Positions 930 through 28,990 of a stretch of DNA of 64,000 nucleotides are shown here, one piece after another. Origin of the DNA: a virus (taxonomy: Duplodnaviria; Caudoviricetes); IMG/VR virus record IMGVR_UViG_3300020576_006967, positions 64,001-128,000 of that record; one strand, written 5' to 3'. Both the position numbers and the translations under genes were made by a program. Below the pieces are notes generated by a model, which was not told the origin of the DNA, made no database searches, and saw nothing but the letters and a program-made list of their open reading frames with translations. The first letter of the stretch is position 1, and every line of letters starts with the position of its first letter.

Positions 930-1562
930 ATGATAATGACGACAATTCCATTTACAGCCGAAGAGGTAATAGCTGCCGCTGGTATTCATCCGCTTAAGGT
1001 AAAAAACATATTCCTTTATGGTTCCAGAGTATACGGAACCGCCACGGAAACATCTGATTGGGACATTATTCTAATTGGAAGCCATCTATTGGCTCATGAA
1101 GAGAAGAAAATGACCGTAAATGGCGCTCTTTTGAACATTCATATCTTTACACCAGACTATTTCAAGGACGAACTTAAATTACATCACCCAAGAACTCTAG
1201 AATGCCTTTTTGCGCCAGATTGGATAATACTTAACAACAAGGTTCCTCTTGTTCAAGAGATAAGTGTTAAACGTCTAGTTATGGACACACTTAACGAATC
1301 AAGAAATCGCTGGAAAAGAGCTAAAATGTGCATTTTGGATAGTAATTTCTATACTGGGCAAAAAAGCGCATTTCATTCATTAAGAGTTCTTATATTTGCA
1401 ATACAAATTGCTGAGCATGGAAAAATTGTAGATTATTCTGCGGCCAATTATTTATATCCAGAAATTATGGAGTGTGATGAAATTGACTGGGATTATTATA
1501 AAGAGAAATTCTTGCCGCTTAAAATTGAGTTAGAAGAAAAATTAAAAACATATCACATTTAA
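930..1562 (+). CDS. Pol-beta superfamily nucleotidyltransferase with helical C-terminal domain
   Basis: YGSRVYGTATETSDWD = GS..DxD NTase motif. Confidence 0.8.
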   Translation: MIMTTIPFTAEEVIAAAGIHPLKVKNIFLYGSRVYGTATETSDWDIILIGSHLLAHEEKKMTVNGALLNIHIFTPDYFKDELKLHHPRTLECLFAPDWIILNNKVPLVQEISVKRLVMDTLNESRNRWKRAKMCILDSNFYTGQKSAFHSLRVLIFAIQIAEHGKIVDYSAANYLYPEIMECDEIDWDYYKEKFLPLKIELEEKLKTYHI

Positions 1563-1642
1563 ATCATGGAAGAAATTAAAAGTTGGTGACAAAATATTGG
1601 TCGGAGATATAATATTTTTCTACATATTTATAAATAAAGAAT

Positions 1643-2431
1643 ATGGAAAAACGATATTATGTATATGTTTATTTAGATCAAAGAAAACCTGGAATTTGGA
1701 GTTATGAAGATAAAAATTTCGAATTTCAACCTTTTTACATTGGTAAAGGAACTGGAAAAAGAGAAACTATACACACCACACCAAGTATGTTAAAAATTAA
1801 AAGTTTTAAAACTAGTGTAATAAAAAGTATTATCTCAGAAACAAATGAATTACCAATGCATTATAGAGTATATGACGAAATTGATCAGACCACAGCAGTT
1901 GATTTAGAGATAAAGATGATAAAACATTTTGGAAGGCGAGATATACAAACTGGAATTTTATCAAATTGCACAGATGGTGGGGATGGGACTAATAATTTAA
2001 GTAAAGAAAAAAGAGATAGAAAAGCGCTAAGGAAACAAGTTTTTCAATATGATTTAAGTGGTAATTTTATAAAAATGTGGGATTCTCCAATAACGGTAGA
2101 AGAAACAATTGGTATTTGCAGAACTGGTATTTCAGAGTCTGCTATAAGAAGCGGAACTTGTGAACACTTTTTTTGGAGTTATAATTATTTGGGAGAAAAA
2201 ATAGAGCCAAAAAAAAGACACAATAAAGAAACAATATATAATAAGATTCAACAAATTAATATTGAAACAGATGAGGTTGTTGCTGAGTTTAATTCTGCTA
2301 AAGAGGCTGCTGAAAAACTAAACTTAAATAAAAATGCAAGAAATAAAATTTTAGATGTTGCACTTGGTAAATTAAACAGACATGGAAACCCAAACAAAAC
2401 ATATATGGGATTTAAATGGAAAACTTTTTGA
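1643..2431 (+). CDS. GIY-YIG homing endonuclease with NUMOD1-like repeats
   Basis: YYVYVY..FYIGKG..E..LSNCTDGGDG; FQYDLSGNFIKMW and F.SAKEAA modules. Confidence 0.8.
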   Translation: MEKRYYVYVYLDQRKPGIWSYEDKNFEFQPFYIGKGTGKRETIHTTPSMLKIKSFKTSVIKSIISETNELPMHYRVYDEIDQTTAVDLEIKMIKHFGRRDIQTGILSNCTDGGDGTNNLSKEKRDRKALRKQVFQYDLSGNFIKMWDSPITVEETIGICRTGISESAIRSGTCEHFFWSYNYLGEKIEPKKRHNKETIYNKIQQINIETDEVVAEFNSAKEAAEKLNLNKNARNKILDVALGKLNRHGNPNKTYMGFKWKTF

Positions 2432-2465
2432 AAATTGAAAATTTTTTTATATCTTTATAATCACA

Positions 2466-2603
2466 ATGATAGAGTCTATTTTACATCTTTTGGGTATTTG
2501 CCCTGACAGTATTGGTCATATTGACCTTATGGATATTGTCGTTTGTTATTACAACGAAATTCAAAATTTAATTACACTTATTCGATTAAGAAACGGATCA
2601 TGA
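2466..2603 (+). CDS. Small hypothetical protein (45 aa, not in ORF track)
   Basis: MIESILHLLGICPDSIGHIDLMD...; follows a TATCTTTA host-type promoter; stop overlaps next ATG. Confidence 0.5.
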   Translation: MIESILHLLGICPDSIGHIDLMDIVVCYYNEIQNLITLIRLRNGS

Positions 2604-2764
2604 AAAAAGGAATACATATATTGATGTTTTTGCTTATACTTGTAAATATTGTTTTGTATAAATTAGACCATATTTCAAGGCTAGACTTCGATCAAATGAT
2701 TTTTATGTTCCCATGCGTTTGGATTATTTTATCAACTGGTGATTTTGAACATGAAAAAAAATAG
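2600..2764 (+). CDS. Small membrane protein
   Basis: MKKGIHILMFLLILV.. hydrophobic; coupled to neighbours. Confidence 0.5.
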   Translation: MKKGIHILMFLLILVNIVLYKLDHISRLDFDQMIFMFPCVWIILSTGDFEHEKK

Positions 2765-3059
2765 TTTGCCAAAATATTATGCCAGGCCAGATGATGGCAC
2801 CATTTTTTCTTTAAACGAAGATCGCATAACATATTCAATTGAAGATTCTAAAAAAGAATTTCCATACAATTTGCATCATAAATATACTCAAGAGCATTTG
2901 CTTGCTGTTGATTTTTATAAAGTCACAAAAAAGGATTTTCCAAATCTTAAAAAAATTCAGGATGAATACTATGCTTATATGTCATGGGCCAATAGATCAG
3001 ATGGTCATGGTGGTATTCGTGGAGGTACATTAGAAGAATTCAGAAATTTAAAAAAATAA
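2751..3059 (+). CDS. Hypothetical protein
   Basis: ORF track, operon packing. Confidence 0.55.
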   Translation: MKKNSLPKYYARPDDGTIFSLNEDRITYSIEDSKKEFPYNLHHKYTQEHLLAVDFYKVTKKDFPNLKKIQDEYYAYMSWANRSDGHGGIRGGTLEEFRNLKK

Positions 3060-3061
3060 AC

Positions 3062-3337
3062 ATGCCATCAATAGTTAGAGGTTTTTTAATGGGTATAATA
3101 GTGTCTTTTTTTATTTTACTTGGTGTTTTATACACTGTAAATAAAAACAAAGAGGAAATTATCAAGTCTCAAGTTAAAATTTTGATTGATAAAAAAATTG
3201 ATTCCTTAATTTCAACAAAGGGCCCTTGGGTTGATTCAATCATAACAGCTAGGTATAAAATTATGATGACAGACACTTCTTTTCAAAGAAAGCTCTCAAA
3301 TGCAAAGGGTAGAATAACAAATATTTTTATCAAGTAA
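3062..3337 (+). CDS. Hypothetical membrane-anchored protein
   Basis: N-terminal TM segment. Confidence 0.55.
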   Translation: MPSIVRGFLMGIIVSFFILLGVLYTVNKNKEEIIKSQVKILIDKKIDSLISTKGPWVDSIITARYKIMMTDTSFQRKLSNAKGRITNIFIK

Positions 3338-3338
3338 C

Positions 3339-4736
3339 ATGAAAAAAATTTACATCATTTGTGGTGGAACCATGCAACATGTATCTCCACACTTTGCTTT
3401 AACCGCACCAGCATATGGAAATGTTGGACACGATATTTACTGTGCAATGAAATCACGTTTAGACAACGATTTGAATAGTGAATATTCTGTGAAGCTTATA
3501 CCAACAAAAATGGCGCTTGGTATTCTGAACAATGATGAATTTGAAGAAACATTTAATGTTATGAATCACTTCGGATTTGATTTTATTGAAACCAATGAAG
3601 AATTGAGTAAATTTATTGATGCTTTAATCAAAGATTCAGAAACAAGGTGCATTATAATGGCGGCTGCAGTATGTGATTTTGAACCAAGTGTTATTTCAAC
3701 TGTAATAGAGGAAGGTATGATTGAGAATCCAATTTTTAAATTTGGGAAAGATCAAAAAAGACTTGACTCAAACAATTATTATAGTCTTGATTTGGTACCA
3801 GCAGAAAAAATTGTGCATAAAATCAGAGAGAAGCGCAAAGATATTTTTGTTGTATCATTTAAGACAACCGCAGGTGTTGGAAGAGATGAAACTTACAAGA
3901 GAGGTTTGTTAGCATTAAAAAAGAATAGCTCAAATCTTGTTTTCGCAAACGACATTAGAGATAAAATAAATATGGTAATTACACCTGAAGAATTTCCACA
4001 TGAAGGTGAAACAAGAAGTGAAGCAATTGCTATATTGGCAGATATTACTTTAAAAAGATTGAATCTTACGTTTGGGGATAAAACAATTGTAAGAGATGAT
4101 CAAAGAGCTTTTCCTGAAGAGCTTATCCAAGAAGGTGTAATACCTCAAAATTGGTATGATGTAATGAAATACTTATTTGCTCACAAAGCTTTTAAGCCTC
4201 TTCCAGGAACTGGTAAAACAAGTGGGCATTTTGGTTGTAGAGTGGATGGTAAAGATTTTGAAAGAATCACATCTGAACGTAAAATAAATCACAACGAGAG
4301 CTTCCAAAGAGGTATGATTCCTGTGTATTCATACAAAAACGGCGAACTTATTGTTGGTGGTGCAAGACCTTCTGTGGGTGAAAAAACACAAGAATTAATT
4401 TATCATGAGCTTGGGGATAAAATTCATTCTATTGTACATTTCCACTGTCCTATGCGTGAAGGTTTTGAAGAGCGTGGTGTAATTCCTGTTAGAGAACAAT
4501 TTCATGTAGAATGCGGTAGTAGAGAGTGTGCAATTAACACTTTTGAAGGTATAAAAAATGGTGAAATAATCCCTGGCGTTTATGCAGTACATCTTAAAAA
4601 TCATGGTCCCAATATTGCTTTCCATAAAGATGTTCCACCAGGAGAGATAATAGATTTTATTCACACATACTGGGATTTATCAGAAAAAACTGGTGGAATT
4701 ATAAAGGGAGAAAATACTGTTAAATCACATATGTAA
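3339..4736 (+). CDS. CoaB (phosphopantothenate-cysteine ligase)-like domain fused to class II aldolase/adducin-like domain
   Basis: ICGGT, IIMAAAVCDF, VVSFKT, LVFAND (CoaB-like); RPS..IY..IVHFH..NHG (aldolase II-like). Confidence 0.7.
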   Translation: MKKIYIICGGTMQHVSPHFALTAPAYGNVGHDIYCAMKSRLDNDLNSEYSVKLIPTKMALGILNNDEFEETFNVMNHFGFDFIETNEELSKFIDALIKDSETRCIIMAAAVCDFEPSVISTVIEEGMIENPIFKFGKDQKRLDSNNYYSLDLVPAEKIVHKIREKRKDIFVVSFKTTAGVGRDETYKRGLLALKKNSSNLVFANDIRDKINMVITPEEFPHEGETRSEAIAILADITLKRLNLTFGDKTIVRDDQRAFPEELIQEGVIPQNWYDVMKYLFAHKAFKPLPGTGKTSGHFGCRVDGKDFERITSERKINHNESFQRGMIPVYSYKNGELIVGGARPSVGEKTQELIYHELGDKIHSIVHFHCPMREGFEERGVIPVREQFHVECGSRECAINTFEGIKNGEIIPGVYAVHLKNHGPNIAFHKDVPPGEIIDFIHTYWDLSEKTGGIIKGENTVKSHM

Positions 4737-5481
4737 AAATAAAACCTTTGTGATTTTTTCTTGAACCATTCGCCACAGCAGTTATAGCAGTCTTTTTTAA
4801 ATTTAGTTTCTCAGAAGCTTCTTTTAATGAATTATAAATTGTGTTGTTGGTAGTGCATTTTACTTTTTTGTAAACAAATTTTTTCATTCTAGCTTCTATG
4901 GAGTTTTTTTTATGCTCTTCTGTTTGTTTTTTACCTTTTCTTTGTTTGCTCATTAAGTTTTTAGTTGTCTGAGAACGTTTACTTCCTATGTTTTTTAAAC
5001 GAATTATTTCGTGCTGTTCTTTTGTTAAAAAATCTTTACCTTTTCTTTCTTGCCTAAGTATTTCCTTGCGTTCTTCTGAAACTATTCTTTTACAATTTGC
5101 CTCATATTGAGCAGGTGTTTGTTTTTTACCCTTTCTTTGTTTGCTCCATAATTTTTTAGTTTTTTCAGAGATAATTCTACCAGAGCTACCTTCACCACCA
5201 TCTGTGAAATTGCAAAGTGTGCCAGTTTTTAAATCTAATCTTCCAAATTTAGCGATGAGCTCTTTTTCTAAAGTAAGTGCTTCTTGTTCACTGATATTAT
5301 CTTTGAATTTTTCTATTTTTGGTTCTAAAAAAAGTTGTTTAATTTTATTAAGTTTTCTTTTTAAAAGAGGGTTTGTGCACTCTGACAAATGATCAAACAT
5401 ACGATTTCCAATACCTTTACCAACATATATTGGAATATTTGGTATGTACCTAGTATCGTAATATATATAAACATAAGCCAT
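4720..5481 (-). CDS. GIY-YIG homing endonuclease with NUMOD3 repeats
   Basis: YVYIY..YVGKG..R..E..LCNFTDGGEG; SKQRKGKKQT repeated. Confidence 0.8.
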   Translation of the reverse strand: MAYVYIYYDTRYIPNIPIYVGKGIGNRMFDHLSECTNPLLKRKLNKIKQLFLEPKIEKFKDNISEQEALTLEKELIAKFGRLDLKTGTLCNFTDGGEGSSGRIISEKTKKLWSKQRKGKKQTPAQYEANCKRIVSEERKEILRQERKGKDFLTKEQHEIIRLKNIGSKRSQTTKNLMSKQRKGKKQTEEHKKNSIEARMKKFVYKKVKCTTNNTIYNSLKEASEKLNLKKTAITAVANGSRKNHKGFIFTYVI

Positions 5482-5639
5482 CACTTTATTTTTTTATCAA
5501 GATCCATTTCTATTAATTGTCTAATTCTTTCAGACATCGGAATTTCGAGATTTAAACAGTATAACTTATATTGCTTTCTAAGGTCTTTGGCAATAAGTAT
5601 ATTTATTCTTACTTCTTTATTGTTTTCTTTTATACTCAT
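5481..5639 (-). CDS. Small ribbon-helix-helix protein (52 aa, not in ORF track)
   Basis: MSIKENNKEVRINILIAKDLRKQYKLYCLNLEIPMSERIRQLIEMDLDKKIK; TGATG overlap with the GIY-YIG start. Confidence 0.65.
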   Translation of the reverse strand: MSIKENNKEVRINILIAKDLRKQYKLYCLNLEIPMSERIRQLIEMDLDKKIK

Positions 5640-5686
5640 ATACATAAATATGTATAAAAAACCAAAATATGAAAATATTTATTGAT

Positions 5687-6634
5687 ATGGATTTAAATGA
5701 GTCATATAGAAAAAGGTTAATGGAATTGGCTGGCTTAATAAAGTTGGATGAAGATGCTAAAATTATTCAAATGTACCCCAGTTCAAAAGTTAAAAACCAA
5801 CCAGAGGATATGTTGAAATATGCTGCAGAAAGAGCTGTAAATGGTTTAAGAATCACATCCGAACAATTAAAGTCACTAGATGAAAATCAACAAAAAGAAT
5901 ATGTAAAATTTATTGTAAAATTATTGTTCAATACAAATAATCATCATGGACTTATTGATAATTTTAAAGATACTAATTTTAAATTTTTAAGCAAAAGTGT
6001 TAAGCTTGAATTTTTAATTTCTATTTTACACACATCAGAATGGAAAAGAAAAGATTATTTATATTGGATAATTAATAAAAGCGGTTGTTTTAAAATGTTG
6101 CCAGAAAACGATAAAATAAGCGCAGTTGTTCAATGGGTAATGGATTCAACAAGACTTCTTGCTCCTAGTTGGTTTTATAAAGAGTTAGATTTTTTTTATG
6201 AACTATCTGAATTGGAAAGAGGTAAAATAATATATGATTTGTATGAAAAGAAAAATTATTATCTTTTATATGATTATAATATTTTTAATAGTTTAACCGC
6301 AGAAAACAAAAAATTTTATACTAATAAACTTTCTAAAATTGGAGACAAAATTCCAGATTTTATTTTTGATTTATTAAACCCACAAGAATTGAGTGACTAT
6401 ATACACAACTTAAAGGGTAGAATTCCATATAGTATGGGAATAGGAGAACACCAATTTAATAATTTGCCAAACGAACTTAAAAGAACATATGTAGTAAATA
6501 AAATAAGAGCAAGTAAGGTTTATAAACTAACACAACAGGAATTAAGTTCTTTAACACCAGATGAACAGGAAAAATTTAAGTCAAGATTGGTCGGTACACC
6601 AAATCCTAAAGCTGGAACACATGTGACATTTTGA
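5687..6634 (+). CDS. Hypothetical protein with helical repeats, possibly late/virion-associated
   Basis: Start MDLNESYRKRLMELAGL after TATTTAT motif; repeated F..L...K..Y helices. Confidence 0.55.
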   Translation: MDLNESYRKRLMELAGLIKLDEDAKIIQMYPSSKVKNQPEDMLKYAAERAVNGLRITSEQLKSLDENQQKEYVKFIVKLLFNTNNHHGLIDNFKDTNFKFLSKSVKLEFLISILHTSEWKRKDYLYWIINKSGCFKMLPENDKISAVVQWVMDSTRLLAPSWFYKELDFFYELSELERGKIIYDLYEKKNYYLLYDYNIFNSLTAENKKFYTNKLSKIGDKIPDFIFDLLNPQELSDYIHNLKGRIPYSMGIGEHQFNNLPNELKRTYVVNKIRASKVYKLTQQELSSLTPDEQEKFKSRLVGTPNPKAGTHVTF

Positions 6635-6677
6635 TGTTTGTGTATTTTTTGTTATCTTTGAATAACAAAAATAAGAC

Positions 6678-6995
6678 ATGGAATTTAATAAGGAAAAACA
6701 AATCAGTAAAATGAAACCAGCTGTAGACAAGTTGGTTTCACGCCTTGAAAAGAAAGGTATATATTTTAAACATTCAGATGGTGAGTTTGAAAATGTGCTT
6801 TTTTCATCTGGTGATCTTGAATTGAAAATGTCTCACCACTCTTTTTATAGATATTCTGGTATTGCCGTGCTTTGTTATGGCAATGATGATACAAACACAT
6901 CTAAAACAGTTGATGTGACTGATGATATGTACATGAGCATATTCATGGAACCAATTGTTGAAAACCACTTTAAAAAATCAAAGGTTTTAAAATAA
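6678..6995 (+). CDS. Hypothetical protein
   Basis: ORF after TTTG..TATCTTTG promoter. Confidence 0.55.
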   Translation: MEFNKEKQISKMKPAVDKLVSRLEKKGIYFKHSDGEFENVLFSSGDLELKMSHHSFYRYSGIAVLCYGNDDTNTSKTVDVTDDMYMSIFMEPIVENHFKKSKVLK

Positions 6996-7007
6996 CCTTG
7001 CGGCTAT

Positions 7008-7499
7008 ATGAGTGAATTAAAAGAAATTGTTCAAGTTAATCAAAAACATTTTGATTATCTTATTGAGGTAGCTAAAAAAGCTACCTGCAGCAGATCTAAA
7101 TGTGGAAGCATTATTTTAAAATCCTGGGCTACACCTAATTTTATAGAAATTATTGGCGAAGGATATAATTCTATGCCAACAGACATTCAAACCGATTGTT
7201 TCAAAGACGGTCTTCCAGATAATTTTAAAAGTGATAAGACGTGTTGTATTCATGCCGAGCAAAGAGCTATCATAGAAGCATTCAAAAACCATCCTAAAAG
7301 CGTTCCTGGCAGCGATCTTTTGTTTATAAGATTAGATGACCAGGGTAATCCAAAACACTCAGGAGAACCTTATTGTACCATTTGTAGTAAGATGGCTTTA
7401 GATGCTGGTATATCCAGATTTTTTCTTTGGCACAAAGAGGGTTGGACCGCATACGACACAAAATATTATAACGAACTTTCATTTAAATACAATCCATGA
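7008..7499 (+). CDS. Cytidine/dCMP deaminase family protein
   Basis: HAEQRA and PYCTIC zinc motifs. Confidence 0.8.
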   Translation: MSELKEIVQVNQKHFDYLIEVAKKATCSRSKCGSIILKSWATPNFIEIIGEGYNSMPTDIQTDCFKDGLPDNFKSDKTCCIHAEQRAIIEAFKNHPKSVPGSDLLFIRLDDQGNPKHSGEPYCTICSKMALDAGISRFFLWHKEGWTAYDTKYYNELSFKYNP

Positions 7500-7741
7500 T
7501 TTTAAAAACAAAATATGTTAGAACAAAAGAAAACAGAATTATTGTTTTCTCAGAATTAAATCAACACTCAGAATTTAAAAATTTTGAACCGATATCAGCT
7601 GGTTTTATATCCATAGGTGTTGGTGAAGATGGAAACCCAGATTGTTCTTGTTATGGAGAGAGTGTTTCTCTTAATTTAAAAAGCGATGAAGCTGAAGATA
7701 CGCTTCTTGCTAAAAGACAAATTCTTGGATTGTGGTTATGA
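7496..7741 (+). CDS. Hypothetical phage protein
   Basis: ORF track; PISAGF..CYGESVSL. Confidence 0.55.
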   Translation: MILKTKYVRTKENRIIVFSELNQHSEFKNFEPISAGFISIGVGEDGNPDCSCYGESVSLNLKSDEAEDTLLAKRQILGLWL

Positions 7742-7929
7742 TTACAGATGAACATATAGAAAAAAACGGTAAGCAAATAAAGAAGGTGTCGCTTATTTAT
7801 GTTGATGGTGATCCAAAAACTTGTGATGGATGTGATGAGCAGAAAGTTTGCGCTTCAGTAAGAGATATTGTTGGTAACGTTATGATAATTTGCAAAGATT
7901 GTTTGCAAGAAATCATTGATCATTTTTAG
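7732..7929 (+). CDS. Small zinc-finger-like protein
   Basis: CDGC..CKDC. Confidence 0.5.
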   Translation: MVMITDEHIEKNGKQIKKVSLIYVDGDPKTCDGCDEQKVCASVRDIVGNVMIICKDCLQEIIDHF

Positions 7930-8134
7930 GCTTCTTTTTTGTTTCTGGCCATTCTAGCCAACCATAAACATAAGGAGCAATTTCTATGTTTCCTTGAAGT
8001 GCTTCAACATAGTTTTTCGTGGATTGAGCCATTTTACCTTCTCGTGCCAATATATCATCTATTGCTCTTTGAATTTGTTGTTGTACTGCTATAACTATAT
8101 TTTTTCTTGCTGCATTTTTTACTTTTTCTTTCAT
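7913..8134 (-). CDS. Hypothetical protein
   Basis: ORF track, follows 8143-8805. Confidence 0.5.
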   Translation of the reverse strand: MKEKVKNAARKNIVIAVQQQIQRAIDDILAREGKMAQSTKNYVEALQGNIEIAPYVYGWLEWPETKKKPKNDQ

Positions 8135-10418: not shown

Positions 10419-10444
10419 TTATACGTTGCAAAAACAAAAAGGTT
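10419..10444 (-). promoter_or_regulatory. ECF-type promoter AAC-N16-CGTATAA upstream of the sigma gene
   Basis: Minus strand: AACctttttgtttttgcaaCGTATAA. Confidence 0.7.
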
Positions 10445-10481
10445 GTAAAAAAATGAAAATAAATTGAGAAATTTTAAAAAT

Positions 10482-10521
10482 AAAAAACCCTCAACTTACT
10501 ATTGTTCGGTTGAGGGTTTTT
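10482..10521 (-). terminator. Intrinsic terminator closing the tmRNA locus
   Basis: aaaaaccctcaac / gttgagggttttt 13-bp inverted repeat. Confidence 0.8.
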
Positions 10522-10530
10522 GTTCGATCC

Positions 10531-10623
10531 TTAAACCAATTCAGCCACAAGGACTGCACTAGTTTCAGGCGTATTAGCGTAAGCGATTGCGCTTTGAGCT
10601 AATACCTTTGTTAGGTTTTTGCC
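10531..10623 (-). other. tmRNA tag reading frame (A)GKNLTKVLAQSAIAYANTPETSAVLVAELV*
   Basis: Resume context ATCAAAC-GGC resembles Bacteroidota tags that start with Gly; 30 codons then TAA within a hairpin. Confidence 0.65.
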
Positions 10624-10700
10624 GTTTGATAGGCTGATTAATCTCTCCTTGTAGCTTTTGATTCGTGTTCGAAATCATTCGCCCCCATTTTTTCAGTTAA

Positions 10701-10883
10701 TTACTTAACCGAGGTTGTAGTAGCTGCTGTTGTCATTGTATCAGCGCAAACCGCTTTACAAGAATCAACCGCTACAGTGTCACACTTAGGCGCTTCCGTT
10801 TCCGTAGCTACTTCAGTGGCCGTATTTGTACAAGCTCCTAGAGCTAATGCCAAAACGATCAATAGTTTTTTTGTTGTTTTCAT
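10701..10883 (-). CDS. Small lipoprotein inside the tmRNA intervening segment
   Basis: MKTTKK-LLIVLALALGAC lipobox; Thr/Ala-rich body with three more Cys. Confidence 0.8.
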   Translation of the reverse strand: MKTTKKLLIVLALALGACTNTATEVATETEAPKCDTVAVDSCKAVCADTMTTAATTTSVK

Positions 10884-10884
10884 C

Positions 10885-10952
10885 TAGTGGAAGCGCAGGG
10901 TATAGAGCCCTGGTTACACAAATTTCGACTACATATCAACGAGCTTAATCTG
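10885..10952 (-). ncRNA. ssrA: tmRNA acceptor piece (circularly permuted two-piece tmRNA)
   Basis: GATTAAGCTC..TGTAGT..ATTTGTG (P2), T-arm CAGGG-CTCTATA-CCCTG, acceptor strand CGCTTCC, discriminator A, then CTA; 5' end approximate. Confidence 0.85.
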
Positions 10953-10956
10953 ATTG

Positions 10957-10986
10957 TAAATATACAGAAATTTTTCCAATTCCAAA
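10957..10986 (-). promoter_or_regulatory. Bacteroidota housekeeping-type promoter for the tmRNA precursor
   Basis: TTTG-N18-TATATTTA, close to the -33/-7 consensus TTTG..TAnnTTTG. Confidence 0.6.
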
Positions 10987-11362: not shown

Positions 11363-11629
11363 CTATTGTTTTGGTGTTAAAGTAAATTTTTTAAATAAAT
11401 CTTGAAGAAATCCGTATTCGTTAAGTTCTTTACAATGAAATCTTCCATTGGCGTGTTGCATATTGTCTTCAATAAGAGTTTGTACTTTAGCTCTGATTTG
11501 AACTTGAGAAATTGGTTTTTTAAATGGATTGGTTGACTCTAAGTCTTCTTGATAGTCCTTTTCATCTTGTTCGTCAACAAGAGATTGAATTTCATCTTTT
11601 AATTCTGTGGTATTATTTACTGTTTTCAT
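11363..11629 (-). CDS. Hypothetical protein
   Basis: ORF track. Confidence 0.55.
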   Translation of the reverse strand: MKTVNNTTELKDEIQSLVDEQDEKDYQEDLESTNPFKKPISQVQIRAKVQTLIEDNMQHANGRFHCKELNEYGFLQDLFKKFTLTPKQ

Positions 11630-11942
11630 GTACGGATTTTTTTACTTTTATTTTAATAAGCTCTTTTAACAAAATTTCTTTAACCTCAACAGGTTCAAGG
11701 CCTTTAAATGAAAGGCTTACTGATTTACCGTTTTCTTTTCCCTTGCCTTCACGTACTTCGATGTTGGTAACTCTACCTTTTAAAAATGGGCTTAATTCTT
11801 CTTTTTCAATGGTTTCTTTTATAAAGTCATAAACTTCTTGTTGTGATGCATCACAAAAAGTCAAAAACTCTGTTTGGACTCCTTGTTTTTTAATGTTAAC
11901 CCTCATTAAGAGAGGTGGATCTGGAGTGGTGTATATTCTCAT
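11613..11942 (-). CDS. Hypothetical protein
   Basis: ORF track; start trimmed to the ATG coupled to the upstream stop. Confidence 0.55.
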   Translation of the reverse strand: MRIYTTPDPPLLMRVNIKKQGVQTEFLTFCDASQQEVYDFIKETIEKEELSPFLKGRVTNIEVREGKGKENGKSVSLSFKGLEPVEVKEILLKELIKIKVKKSVHENSK

Positions 11943-18987: not shown

Positions 18988-20928
18988 ATGACAGTACAAT
19001 TAAAGCATTCATTTGGAATAATAGAATTTACGAGAGCGGGAAATGCGTATTTAATTTCAGAAAGTAAAAAAATAAATAAAGACGTTTTCATCCCAAGAGG
19101 AAGAACTGGAGAGGCCTTTAATGGAGATACGGTATTCGTTGCATTTAAACCTGGTAGAATTCCAGGTGAAACAATTGGCCATGTTATAGGTGTAAAATCT
19201 AGGTTTAGAAATGACTATCTAGGTACTTGTGAAATAAATGATGAAACGGGCGAGTTTGTAGTTAAAGCTACTTCTAAAAAATTTCCAATAGAATTTACAA
19301 TTCCAAAGCTTTACATAGGTCTAGCTAAGGTTGGAGACAAAGTTTCTGTTAAATTAAGTAAGTGGGATAAAAAATTAAACAAGCCTATCGGTCTTATCAA
19401 AGAAGTGTTGGGTAAAGCTGGTTTACACTCTACTGAAATGAAGGCGATTTTACTTGAAAACAATATTGAATCTAAATTTCCAGATTCAGTAATGAAAGAA
19501 GCGGAAGAAATTAACTTTGAAATTGATGCTGAAGAAATTGCTAAAAGAGAGGATTTTAGAGAGGTTGTTTGTTTAACAATTGATCCAAAGGATGCTAAAG
19601 ATTTTGATGATGCTTTATCTTTTAAAAAAATTGACAACAACATTTATGAAGTTGGAGTCCATATTGCAGACGTTTCTCATTATATGAAACCAGAAAGCGA
19701 GTTGGATGTAGAAGCTTACAGAAGATCAACATCCACATATTTAGTCGATAGATGCATTCCAATGCTTCCAGAGAGGCTTTCAAATGGAGTGTGCTCTCTT
19801 AGACCAAATGAAGAAAAATTGTGTTTCTCAGCTATTTTTATGTTGTCTTACACTGATCCAAGTGTAAACGGGCCAGCAAGAGCAAAAATTATAAATTCTA
19901 GATTTGCTAGAACTGTAATTAAGTCTGGAAAAAGATATTCATATGAAGATGCTCAGGAATTAATTGAAAACACAACACAAGCAGTCGATAATTATGATTG
20001 GGCAGTTCTTACATTAAATTTATTAGCAAAAGCATTAAGGACTGAAAGGTTTGAGCATGGCGCTGTGTCTTTTGAAAAACGTGAAGTGAAATTCAAGCTT
20101 GACGAAGATGGGTCGCCAATTGGTGTGTATTTTAAAGAATCAAAAGATTCAAATAAATTGATTGAAGAGTTTATGCTATTGGCTAATCAATCTGTAGCTA
20201 AATATATTGGGGAAAAAGATTTACCTTGTATATATAGAACCCATGCATTGCCATCTATGGAGCGTTTACAGGAGTTATCTATATTTGTTGAACAGTTTGG
20301 TTACACATTCAAAGTAAGCGAAGACGACGAGGCAAATAAAGAAGCTTTAAATAAATTACTTTTGGAAGTAAAAGGTTCAAATCATGCCAACATTATAGAA
20401 ACTGTAGCTGTTAGATCTATGTCAAAAGCTATTTACACAACAGCTGCACTTGGTCACTATGGTCTTGGATTTAAATATTATGGACATTTCACAAGTCCAA
20501 TTCGTAGATATCCAGATGTTATTTTACACAGATTGCTTGAAAGTTTGATGGCCACTGGAAACGTAGTTGCACCAAGGTTGCAAATTCAGTGTGATCATTG
20601 TTCTGAATTAGAAGGAAAAGCTGTAAAAGCAGAAAGAGATTCAATTAAGTTTAAACAAACAGAGTTTATGCAAAACAAAATTGGGCAAACATACGAAGGC
20701 GTTGTTTCTGGTGTTTCTAATTGGGGTTTACATGTAGAAATAAAAGAAAATGGGTGCGAAGGCATGATTGGAACTGGAGAAATGGGCGCTTTGGGTTATG
20801 TGCTTGATGAAAAAAATTATAAATTTATTAAAGAAAACAATGTAAAAATTTCTCTTGGAGACAAGGTGAATGTGAAAGTTTTCGGTGTAAATTTAACGAA
20901 GAGACAAATTGATCTTAATTTAATTTAA
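18988..20928 (+). CDS. rnr: Ribonuclease R (RNB family)
   Basis: TIDPKDAKDFDDALS, VHIADVS, HFTSPIRRYPD, C-terminal S1 domain. Confidence 0.92.
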   Translation: MTVQLKHSFGIIEFTRAGNAYLISESKKINKDVFIPRGRTGEAFNGDTVFVAFKPGRIPGETIGHVIGVKSRFRNDYLGTCEINDETGEFVVKATSKKFPIEFTIPKLYIGLAKVGDKVSVKLSKWDKKLNKPIGLIKEVLGKAGLHSTEMKAILLENNIESKFPDSVMKEAEEINFEIDAEEIAKREDFREVVCLTIDPKDAKDFDDALSFKKIDNNIYEVGVHIADVSHYMKPESELDVEAYRRSTSTYLVDRCIPMLPERLSNGVCSLRPNEEKLCFSAIFMLSYTDPSVNGPARAKIINSRFARTVIKSGKRYSYEDAQELIENTTQAVDNYDWAVLTLNLLAKALRTERFEHGAVSFEKREVKFKLDEDGSPIGVYFKESKDSNKLIEEFMLLANQSVAKYIGEKDLPCIYRTHALPSMERLQELSIFVEQFGYTFKVSEDDEANKEALNKLLLEVKGSNHANIIETVAVRSMSKAIYTTAALGHYGLGFKYYGHFTSPIRRYPDVILHRLLESLMATGNVVAPRLQIQCDHCSELEGKAVKAERDSIKFKQTEFMQNKIGQTYEGVVSGVSNWGLHVEIKENGCEGMIGTGEMGALGYVLDEKNYKFIKENNVKISLGDKVNVKVFGVNLTKRQIDLNLI

Positions 20929-28525: not shown

Positions 28526-28990
28526 GTGGGAAAAATTAAAAAGATAAAAGAACCTTTTAGAATTGAAAATAGGAAGGCAAAATACGAATATAAACTTTTA
28601 GAAAGTTTTGATTGCGGTATTGTGTTGAAGGGCACCGAGATAAAGTCTATACGAGAGAATTCGGCTAATATAGGCGCTGCTTATTGTTATTTGTCAAACG
28701 GACAAGTTATAATAAAAAACATGCATATTTCTGAGTGGAAACATGCTACTACCACACACGATCCAACAAGGGACAGGGTTCTGTTGTTGAAAAAGAAAGA
28801 AATAGAAAAAATTACCAGAGAAGTTAAGACTGCTGGTATAACTCTTGTGCCGACGGTTCTTTACGAAAAAAAGAACATAGCAAAAGTTATCATCAGTTTA
28901 GCCAAAGGTAAAAAAACTAGAGATAAAAGAGATAAAATTCGTGAAGACAATATTAAGCGTGACACAGACAGAGAAATGAATTCTTTTTAG
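28526..28990 (+). CDS. smpB: SsrA-binding protein SmpB
   Basis: ENRKAKYEY..GIVLKGTEIKSIR..HDPTRDRVLLL..GKK..DKR tail. Confidence 0.92.
   Translation: MGKIKKIKEPFRIENRKAKYEYKLLESFDCGIVLKGTEIKSIRENSANIGAAYCYLSNGQVIIKNMHISEWKHATTTHDPTRDRVLLLKKKEIEKITREVKTAGITLVPTVLYEKKNIAKVIISLAKGKKTRDKRDKIREDNIKRDTDREMNSF

Follow-up and report, generated by a model that had tools for sequence, protein, structure and literature searches.

A putative small lipoprotein gene in the spacer of a predicted two-piece tmRNA of a Bacteroidota phage

Can the spacer that must be cut out to mature a permuted tmRNA itself be a protein-coding gene? The question was raised by a first-pass annotation of a 64,000-nt stretch (hereafter the window), bases 64001-128000 of the 188,933-bp IMG/VR virus record IMGVR_UViG_3300020576_006967, which is estimated to be 74% complete. 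The annotation had noted that the segment between two tmRNA pieces is almost entirely a same-strand 60-aa ORF with a lipoprotein signal, starting 4 nt after the discriminator base and stopping 14 nt before the 5' G of the coding piece, without a visible promoter of its own for the ORF or the coding piece. Re-examination of the minus strand showed that this description is correct in every detail. The following features were assigned.

10957-10986, minus strand: promoter-like site of the Bacteroidota -33/-7 type (TTTG, 18 nt, TATATTTA), about 24 nt upstream of the acceptor piece.
10888-10933, minus strand: tmRNA acceptor piece of 46 nt, comprising the P2 3' strand (10916-10933), the T arm (10896-12), the acceptor 3' strand (10889-10895) and discriminator A (10888); CCA is not encoded (CTA follows).
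10687-10887, minus strand: intervening segment of 201 nt, comprising a 4-nt leader (CTAG), the ORF and a 14-nt tail (10700-10687) ending in U at position -1 before G1.
10701-10883, minus strand: 60-codon ORF, from the ATG at 10883-10881 to the TAA at 10703-10701, encoding a lipoprotein signal with Cys18 and a Thr/Ala-rich mature part of 42-43 residues with three conserved Cys.
10531-10686, minus strand: tmRNA coding piece, comprising the acceptor 5' strand (10680-10686), a D-loop analogue, the P2 5' strand (10650-10668), a 26-nt linker and a 30-codon tag frame without start codon (10531-10623) ending LVAELV.
10476-10522 (approximate), minus strand: intrinsic-terminator-like 13-bp hairpin followed by a T run.
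28526-28990, plus strand: phage SmpB, the protein partner of tmRNA.

To establish whether the flanking pieces represent a tmRNA, the region was searched with ARAGORN and with Rfam covariance models. ARAGORN reported nothing and no Rfam family reached its gathering score. With relaxed thresholds, however, the permuted tmRNA model RF04321 matched from its first to its last position (1-213) at 10540-10933 with one long insertion, scoring 36.1 bits against a gathering score of 47 (E 2.7e-5 for the 1.5 kb searched and 7.9e-7 for the genome), whilst the alpha-type model gave only 13 bits. The 201-nt insertion and an odd T loop cost score. Independent support came from two diverged homologues of the ORF product, found among 5.8 billion proteins at 88% and 82% identity, both of which lie in the same place between a 116-118-aa gene and a sigma-factor gene, on a 25-kb JGI contig (L095) and a 955-bp Logan contig (L096). 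In an alignment of the three forms the two acceptor strands, about 200 nt apart, change together, with 5' and 3' strands of GGGGGCG and CGCTTCC in the window, GGGTACG and CGTATCC in L095, and GGGGGCG and CGTCTCC in L096. All seven pairs are standard in every sequence, the G:U at pair 3 (G3:U70, the alanine identity element) is invariant, and two pairs each take three standard pair types. Sliding the partners by 1-3 columns dropped pairing from 96% to 33-54% of cells. The inner part of P2 has three mispaired cells in L095 and L096 and is therefore less well supported. The 5-bp stem of the T arm is invariant but its 7-nt loop departs from the usual UUCGAAU type and is 6 nt in L096, observations that leave undecided whether this is a T arm with a canonical loop. 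An alternative pairing in the MFE fold, between the acceptor 3' strand and a complementary heptamer inside the ORF, is not kept in L095 and L096 and was taken as chance.

The tag frame provided a further line of evidence. It is kept through a 3-nt indel at only 60-68% nucleotide identity, with dN/dS of 0.37-0.45, whilst a 1-nt indel lies in the linker just upstream, as expected if the RNA part is non-coding and the tag is coding. The tag is 29-30 codons, starts with Gly, as Bacteroidota tags do, ends LVAELV in all three forms, and evolves fast (55-63% amino acid identity) but keeps an alternating hydrophobic pattern. In the two relatives an ATG overlapping the first G of the coding piece is in frame with the tag, giving a 51-aa ORF (L095 3196-3351 and the same place in L096) that is called as a gene in the JGI annotation of L095. 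In the window (10686-10690) this ORF is broken by a 1-nt indel, indicating that it is not a conserved gene and is probably an annotation artefact. The phage encodes a full-length SmpB (PF01668, 166 bits) and, in the same window, an RNase R-like protein with RNB, CSD2 and S1 domains (18988-20928, plus strand), and no standard tmRNA (RF00023) was found anywhere in the 189-kb record. Searches with this SmpB gave no close viral relative and, among cultured or deposited phages, only distant SmpBs at 40-46% identity, such as those of the Lak megaphages, which were not pursued. An alternative interpretation is that the flanking elements are a decayed tmRNA, or a tRNA-like processing or stability element bracketing an ordinary lipoprotein mRNA. 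This is suggested by the sub-threshold Rfam score, the silence of ARAGORN, the odd T loop, the lack of room for pseudoknots, and a tag without the usual C-terminal Ala-Ala. The compensatory changes in the acceptor stem with retention of G3:U, the maintained tag frame, and SmpB without another tmRNA make it unlikely. It was concluded that this is a working-looking but minimal two-piece tmRNA with real departures from the usual form; cleavage of the precursor into two pieces and charging of the acceptor piece with alanine were not measured.

Conservation of the spacer ORF across related phages, including its dN/dS, had been named in advance as one of the checks on the proposal. In addition to the three full-length forms, three partial variants were rebuilt from contigs of other sequencing runs. 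All six keep the frame open, with no indel in 183 nt, whilst the flanking non-coding stretches carry 1-nt indels. Nei-Gojobori dN/dS in the frame of the ORF is 0.23 (window/L095) and 0.29 (window/L096), and 0.17-0.83 over all 15 pairs, 14 of them at or below 0.57, whereas in the other two frames most pairs lie near 1-2 (range 0.2-2.5). The excess of synonymous change is significant for the two full-length pairs with the window (Fisher P 0.0008 and 0.0014, respectively). Variable columns fall 13/12/22 on codon positions 1/2/3, and the stretch around three cysteines (CDTVAVDSC, two residues, then VCADT) is invariant at the protein level despite several synonymous changes. The lipoprotein signal was assessed with a rule of the PROSITE PS51257 type (Cys at residues 15-35) rather than with SignalP. 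The N-terminus, with three Lys, an uncharged nine-residue hydrophobic core and LGAC ending at Cys18, passes this rule, as do only 7 of 627 ORFs of at least 40 aa in the genome, and these features are invariant in the relatives; lipidation by Lgt and cleavage by LspA were not assayed. The other six ORFs passing the rule (69-336 aa; window 40422, plus strand; record 21627, 131874 and 153546, plus strand; record 158962 and 172130, minus strand) indicate that the phage may encode several lipoproteins. The 14-nt tail is 13/14 and 14/14 identical in the relatives, and the stop codon sits in the GUAA loop of a small 5-bp hairpin (GUUAA/UUAAC; 10697-10710, minus strand) that is invariant in all three forms and lies 12 nt before the predicted RNase P site.

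A rival interpretation is that the ORF is conserved but not translated, the spacer being kept for RNA reasons such as folding or processing of the precursor, or having been exchanged recently between phages with the open frame as a passenger. The S23p ORF in the 23S rRNA intervening sequence of Coxiella burnetii, whose protein appears not to be made, is a precedent (PMC4990558). The block from the promoter to the end of P2 (10640-10997) is an island of 80-92% identity between the window and L095, and dS of the ORF is 0.35, far below that of five of the six flanking genes compared (1.2-2.3; sigma factor 1.74, upstream 118-aa gene 2.27). This could reflect recent exchange or RNA-level constraint on synonymous sites, and in both cases the number of informative substitutions is modest, the three full and three partial variants all being close kin. 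The sixth flanking gene (11613-11912) also has a low dS of 0.52, so such islands are not peculiar to the RNA. Although the start region is structured, GC-rich and atypical (see below) and the protein is an orphan, the frame-specific constraint, the excess of third-position changes, the absence of indels, and the retention in all variants of the Lys-rich n-region, hydrophobic core, lipobox Cys and three further Cys make this interpretation improbable.

Further relatives and a function for the product were then sought. No DNA match was found among phage GenBank records, and scans of IMG/VR and JGI metagenomes with the ORF profile returned nothing. DNA patterns from the tmRNA 5' end gave 21 metagenome hits and at least 118 viral hits, none of which has the matching upstream acceptor strand plus T arm except the known relatives, and ARAGORN found no tmRNA in the 21 metagenome hits. 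A search of 43 viral records found through the sigma factor with RF04321 gave one good hit, on IMGVR_UViG_3300025133_000073 (1058-1562), whose sigma factor is 50% identical, but this is an ordinary one-piece tmRNA at 70.5 bits with the permuted model riding on its 3' end. Both gene forms therefore occur among viral contigs that carry Bacteroidota-like sigma factors. A profile search of 1.8 billion representative proteins returned only the ORF's own cluster, Pfam and PHROGs gave nothing significant, and the ESM Atlas offered only generic 'putative lipoprotein' clusters of Bacteroidota at a score that counts as a lead only; the Atlas model has a pLDDT of 0.41 and the protein was accordingly not folded. 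Small phage lipoproteins such as T5 Llp and Cor, which exclude by receptor blocking, and o-spanins such as lambda Rz1 are similar in size (about 60-aa precursor), lipobox and presence of Cys in the mature part. No sequence or profile similarity to Llp or Cor families was found in Pfam or PHROGs, the best PHROG hit was an Rz-like spanin at E 0.15, and no i-spanin or lysis genes are adjacent, the neighbours being the tmRNA pieces, a sigma factor and small proteins of unknown function. The superinfection exclusion or receptor blocking proposed in the first-pass annotation is thus without support from homology; the role of the lipoprotein is unknown, and an early envelope function such as exclusion of other phages is a guess.

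Whether the parts share one transcript was examined by motif and fold analysis. On the minus strand between 10400 and 11100 the only match to the Bacteroidota -33/-7 pattern is the site upstream of the acceptor piece, and its -7 element is invariant in the three diverged relatives, although this is a motif match only and no transcription start has been mapped. The motif AAC-N16-CGTATAA, a candidate phage-specific promoter occurring 35 times in the record (29 plus strand, 6 minus strand), is found here only after the terminator, at 10425-10444 (minus strand) just upstream of the sigma-factor gene. The 4-nt and 14-nt gaps leave no room for a promoter outside the tmRNA pieces or the ORF, and the only terminator, identified in the MFE fold, lies after the coding piece; in the relatives the sequence here is different but also self-complementary by eye and also followed by a T run, and was not folded. 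Separate transcription of the ORF or coding piece from an unrecognised phage promoter, inside or just before the acceptor piece or inside the ORF, is not excluded by motif scans in a phage that encodes its own sigma factor and uses at least one non-host promoter motif. This possibility is considered unlikely, and transcripts from the upstream promoter would in any case read through. Co-transcription is therefore the simplest reading. In two metatranscriptome-labelled runs, contigs of 192 and 227 nt with about 90% identity run from inside the ORF across the predicted RNase P site into the tmRNA 5' half. Contigs rather than raw RNA reads were examined, these cannot show transcription, ends or strand, and DNA carry-over is possible; both stop near 10644, exactly where conservation drops, so that assembly branching explains the stop, and they were not counted as evidence either way.

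The host setting bears on how such a transcript would be processed and translated. The adjacent sigma factor is 52-56% identical to primary sigma factors of many Bacteroidota and to nothing closer, upstream regions of the phage genes are A-rich without a Shine-Dalgarno signal, and runs containing the stretch are riverine and freshwater metagenomes. The sixteen tRNA genes of the record (Phe, Val, Leu, Arg, Gln; 932-8049, mostly in one cluster at the start, and 186524-186596) all lack an encoded CCA, and no CCA-adding enzyme (PF01743) was found in the 189-kb record, so the expected route is the host's, with an endonucleolytic cut after the discriminator, CCA addition, and RNase P at the 5' side. 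L096 does encode CCA, with one nucleotide before the ATG. The 20 nt before the ATG of the ORF are 55% GC and 20% A, being the T arm and acceptor strand, whereas the genes of this phage average 21% GC and 49% A there and only 1 of 175 is as GC-rich. This argues against ordinary initiation on the folded precursor, but fits initiation either before the acceptor stem can form, its partner strand being transcribed 200 nt later, or on a released, nearly leaderless fragment. None of this has been tested.

Circularly permuted tmRNA genes are established in Alphaproteobacteria, some Betaproteobacteria, cyanobacteria and aquatic phages (Keiler et al. 2000 and Sharkady & Williams 2004, as cited in PMC9004378; PMC11915505), with 53 two-piece forms among 133 unique phage tmRNAs. 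The present locus shares their gene order, the acceptor stem and P2 formed between two pieces, and a spacer that must be removed by tRNA-processing enzymes. It differs in that the spacer is a complete protein gene, the tmRNA is minimal, and, going by sigma factor and promoter type, the phage is one of Bacteroidota, a phylum whose own tmRNAs are almost all one-piece (24,380 standard against 48 permuted entries). The statement in the first-pass annotation that known intervening segments are short is only generally true, since a permuted tmRNA gene of 1152 bp whose spacer holds a repetitive element, and one spacer holding a tRNA-Ala gene, have been reported (PMC11915505). These, and the group I introns with homing endonuclease genes that interrupt other tmRNA genes, likewise nest another gene inside a tmRNA gene that is removed during maturation, but the inserts are self-splicing selfish elements, an RNA gene or a repeat, whereas here the cargo is a non-selfish envelope-protein gene in a spacer removed by host RNases. 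The same paper, the 2025 tmRNA database paper (PMC11915505), reports these introns but no protein gene in a spacer. The Coxiella element is likewise an excised spacer of a stable RNA containing an ORF, but is described as selfish, whereas the present ORF shows purifying selection and a functional-looking signal peptide. In tRNA-mRNA co-transcripts such as the E. coli thrU-tyrU-glyT-thrT-tufB operon, and in tRNA punctuation of mitochondrial transcripts, RNase P and 3' tRNA processing would similarly free an mRNA, but here the bracketing elements are halves of one RNA that reassemble after the mRNA is cut out. No description of a protein gene in a tmRNA spacer was found in the literature searched, in agreement with the first-pass annotation.

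Taken together, the preferred interpretation, to which a probability of roughly 0.7 is assigned, is of a single transcription unit of a Bacteroidota jumbo phage consisting of promoter, tmRNA acceptor piece, lipoprotein gene, tmRNA coding piece and terminator. In this view the two pieces pair across the gene through the acceptor stem and P2, forming a minimal tmRNA that works with the phage's own SmpB, and the RNase Z-type and RNase P cuts would release a 201-nt RNA that is a complete small mRNA, its product being a 60-aa prolipoprotein that would be lipidated at Cys18 and anchored in the envelope. The anatomy, the covariation of the stem, the purifying selection on the ORF and the absence of recognisable internal promoters or terminators rest directly on the sequence analysis, whilst co-transcription, the cleavage sites and translation are deduced from it. 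The earlier interpretation, that maturation releases a near-leaderless mRNA or that the precursor is itself an mRNA, tying lipoprotein production to one of the most abundant phage RNAs, is therefore supported in part, as neither translation, its dependence on processing, nor the abundance of the tmRNA was shown. A more far-reaching and doubtful possibility is that tmRNA maturation licenses translation, the two cuts also creating a near-leaderless mRNA that ends 12 nt after a small conserved GNRA-loop hairpin over its stop codon, such that the lipoprotein would be made only from, and in proportion to, processed tmRNA precursor; as this tmRNA does not score as the alpha type seen in marine phages, use of the spacer as a gene slot would then have arisen more than once in phage tmRNAs.

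Gene callers and tmRNA finders both mis-handle such loci, as the silent ARAGORN search, the sub-threshold Rfam match and the 51-aa 'protein' annotated across the tmRNA 5' end and tag of L095 illustrate. The locus gives a compact natural system for asking how a ribosome starts 4 nt after a tRNA-like stem in a phylum without Shine-Dalgarno pairing, and whether RNA processing gates protein output. Spacers of permuted tmRNAs are treated as throw-away RNA, and a selected protein gene in that spacer means that a stable-RNA precursor appears to double as a messenger, and that tRNA-processing enzymes may define the ends of an mRNA in bacteria.
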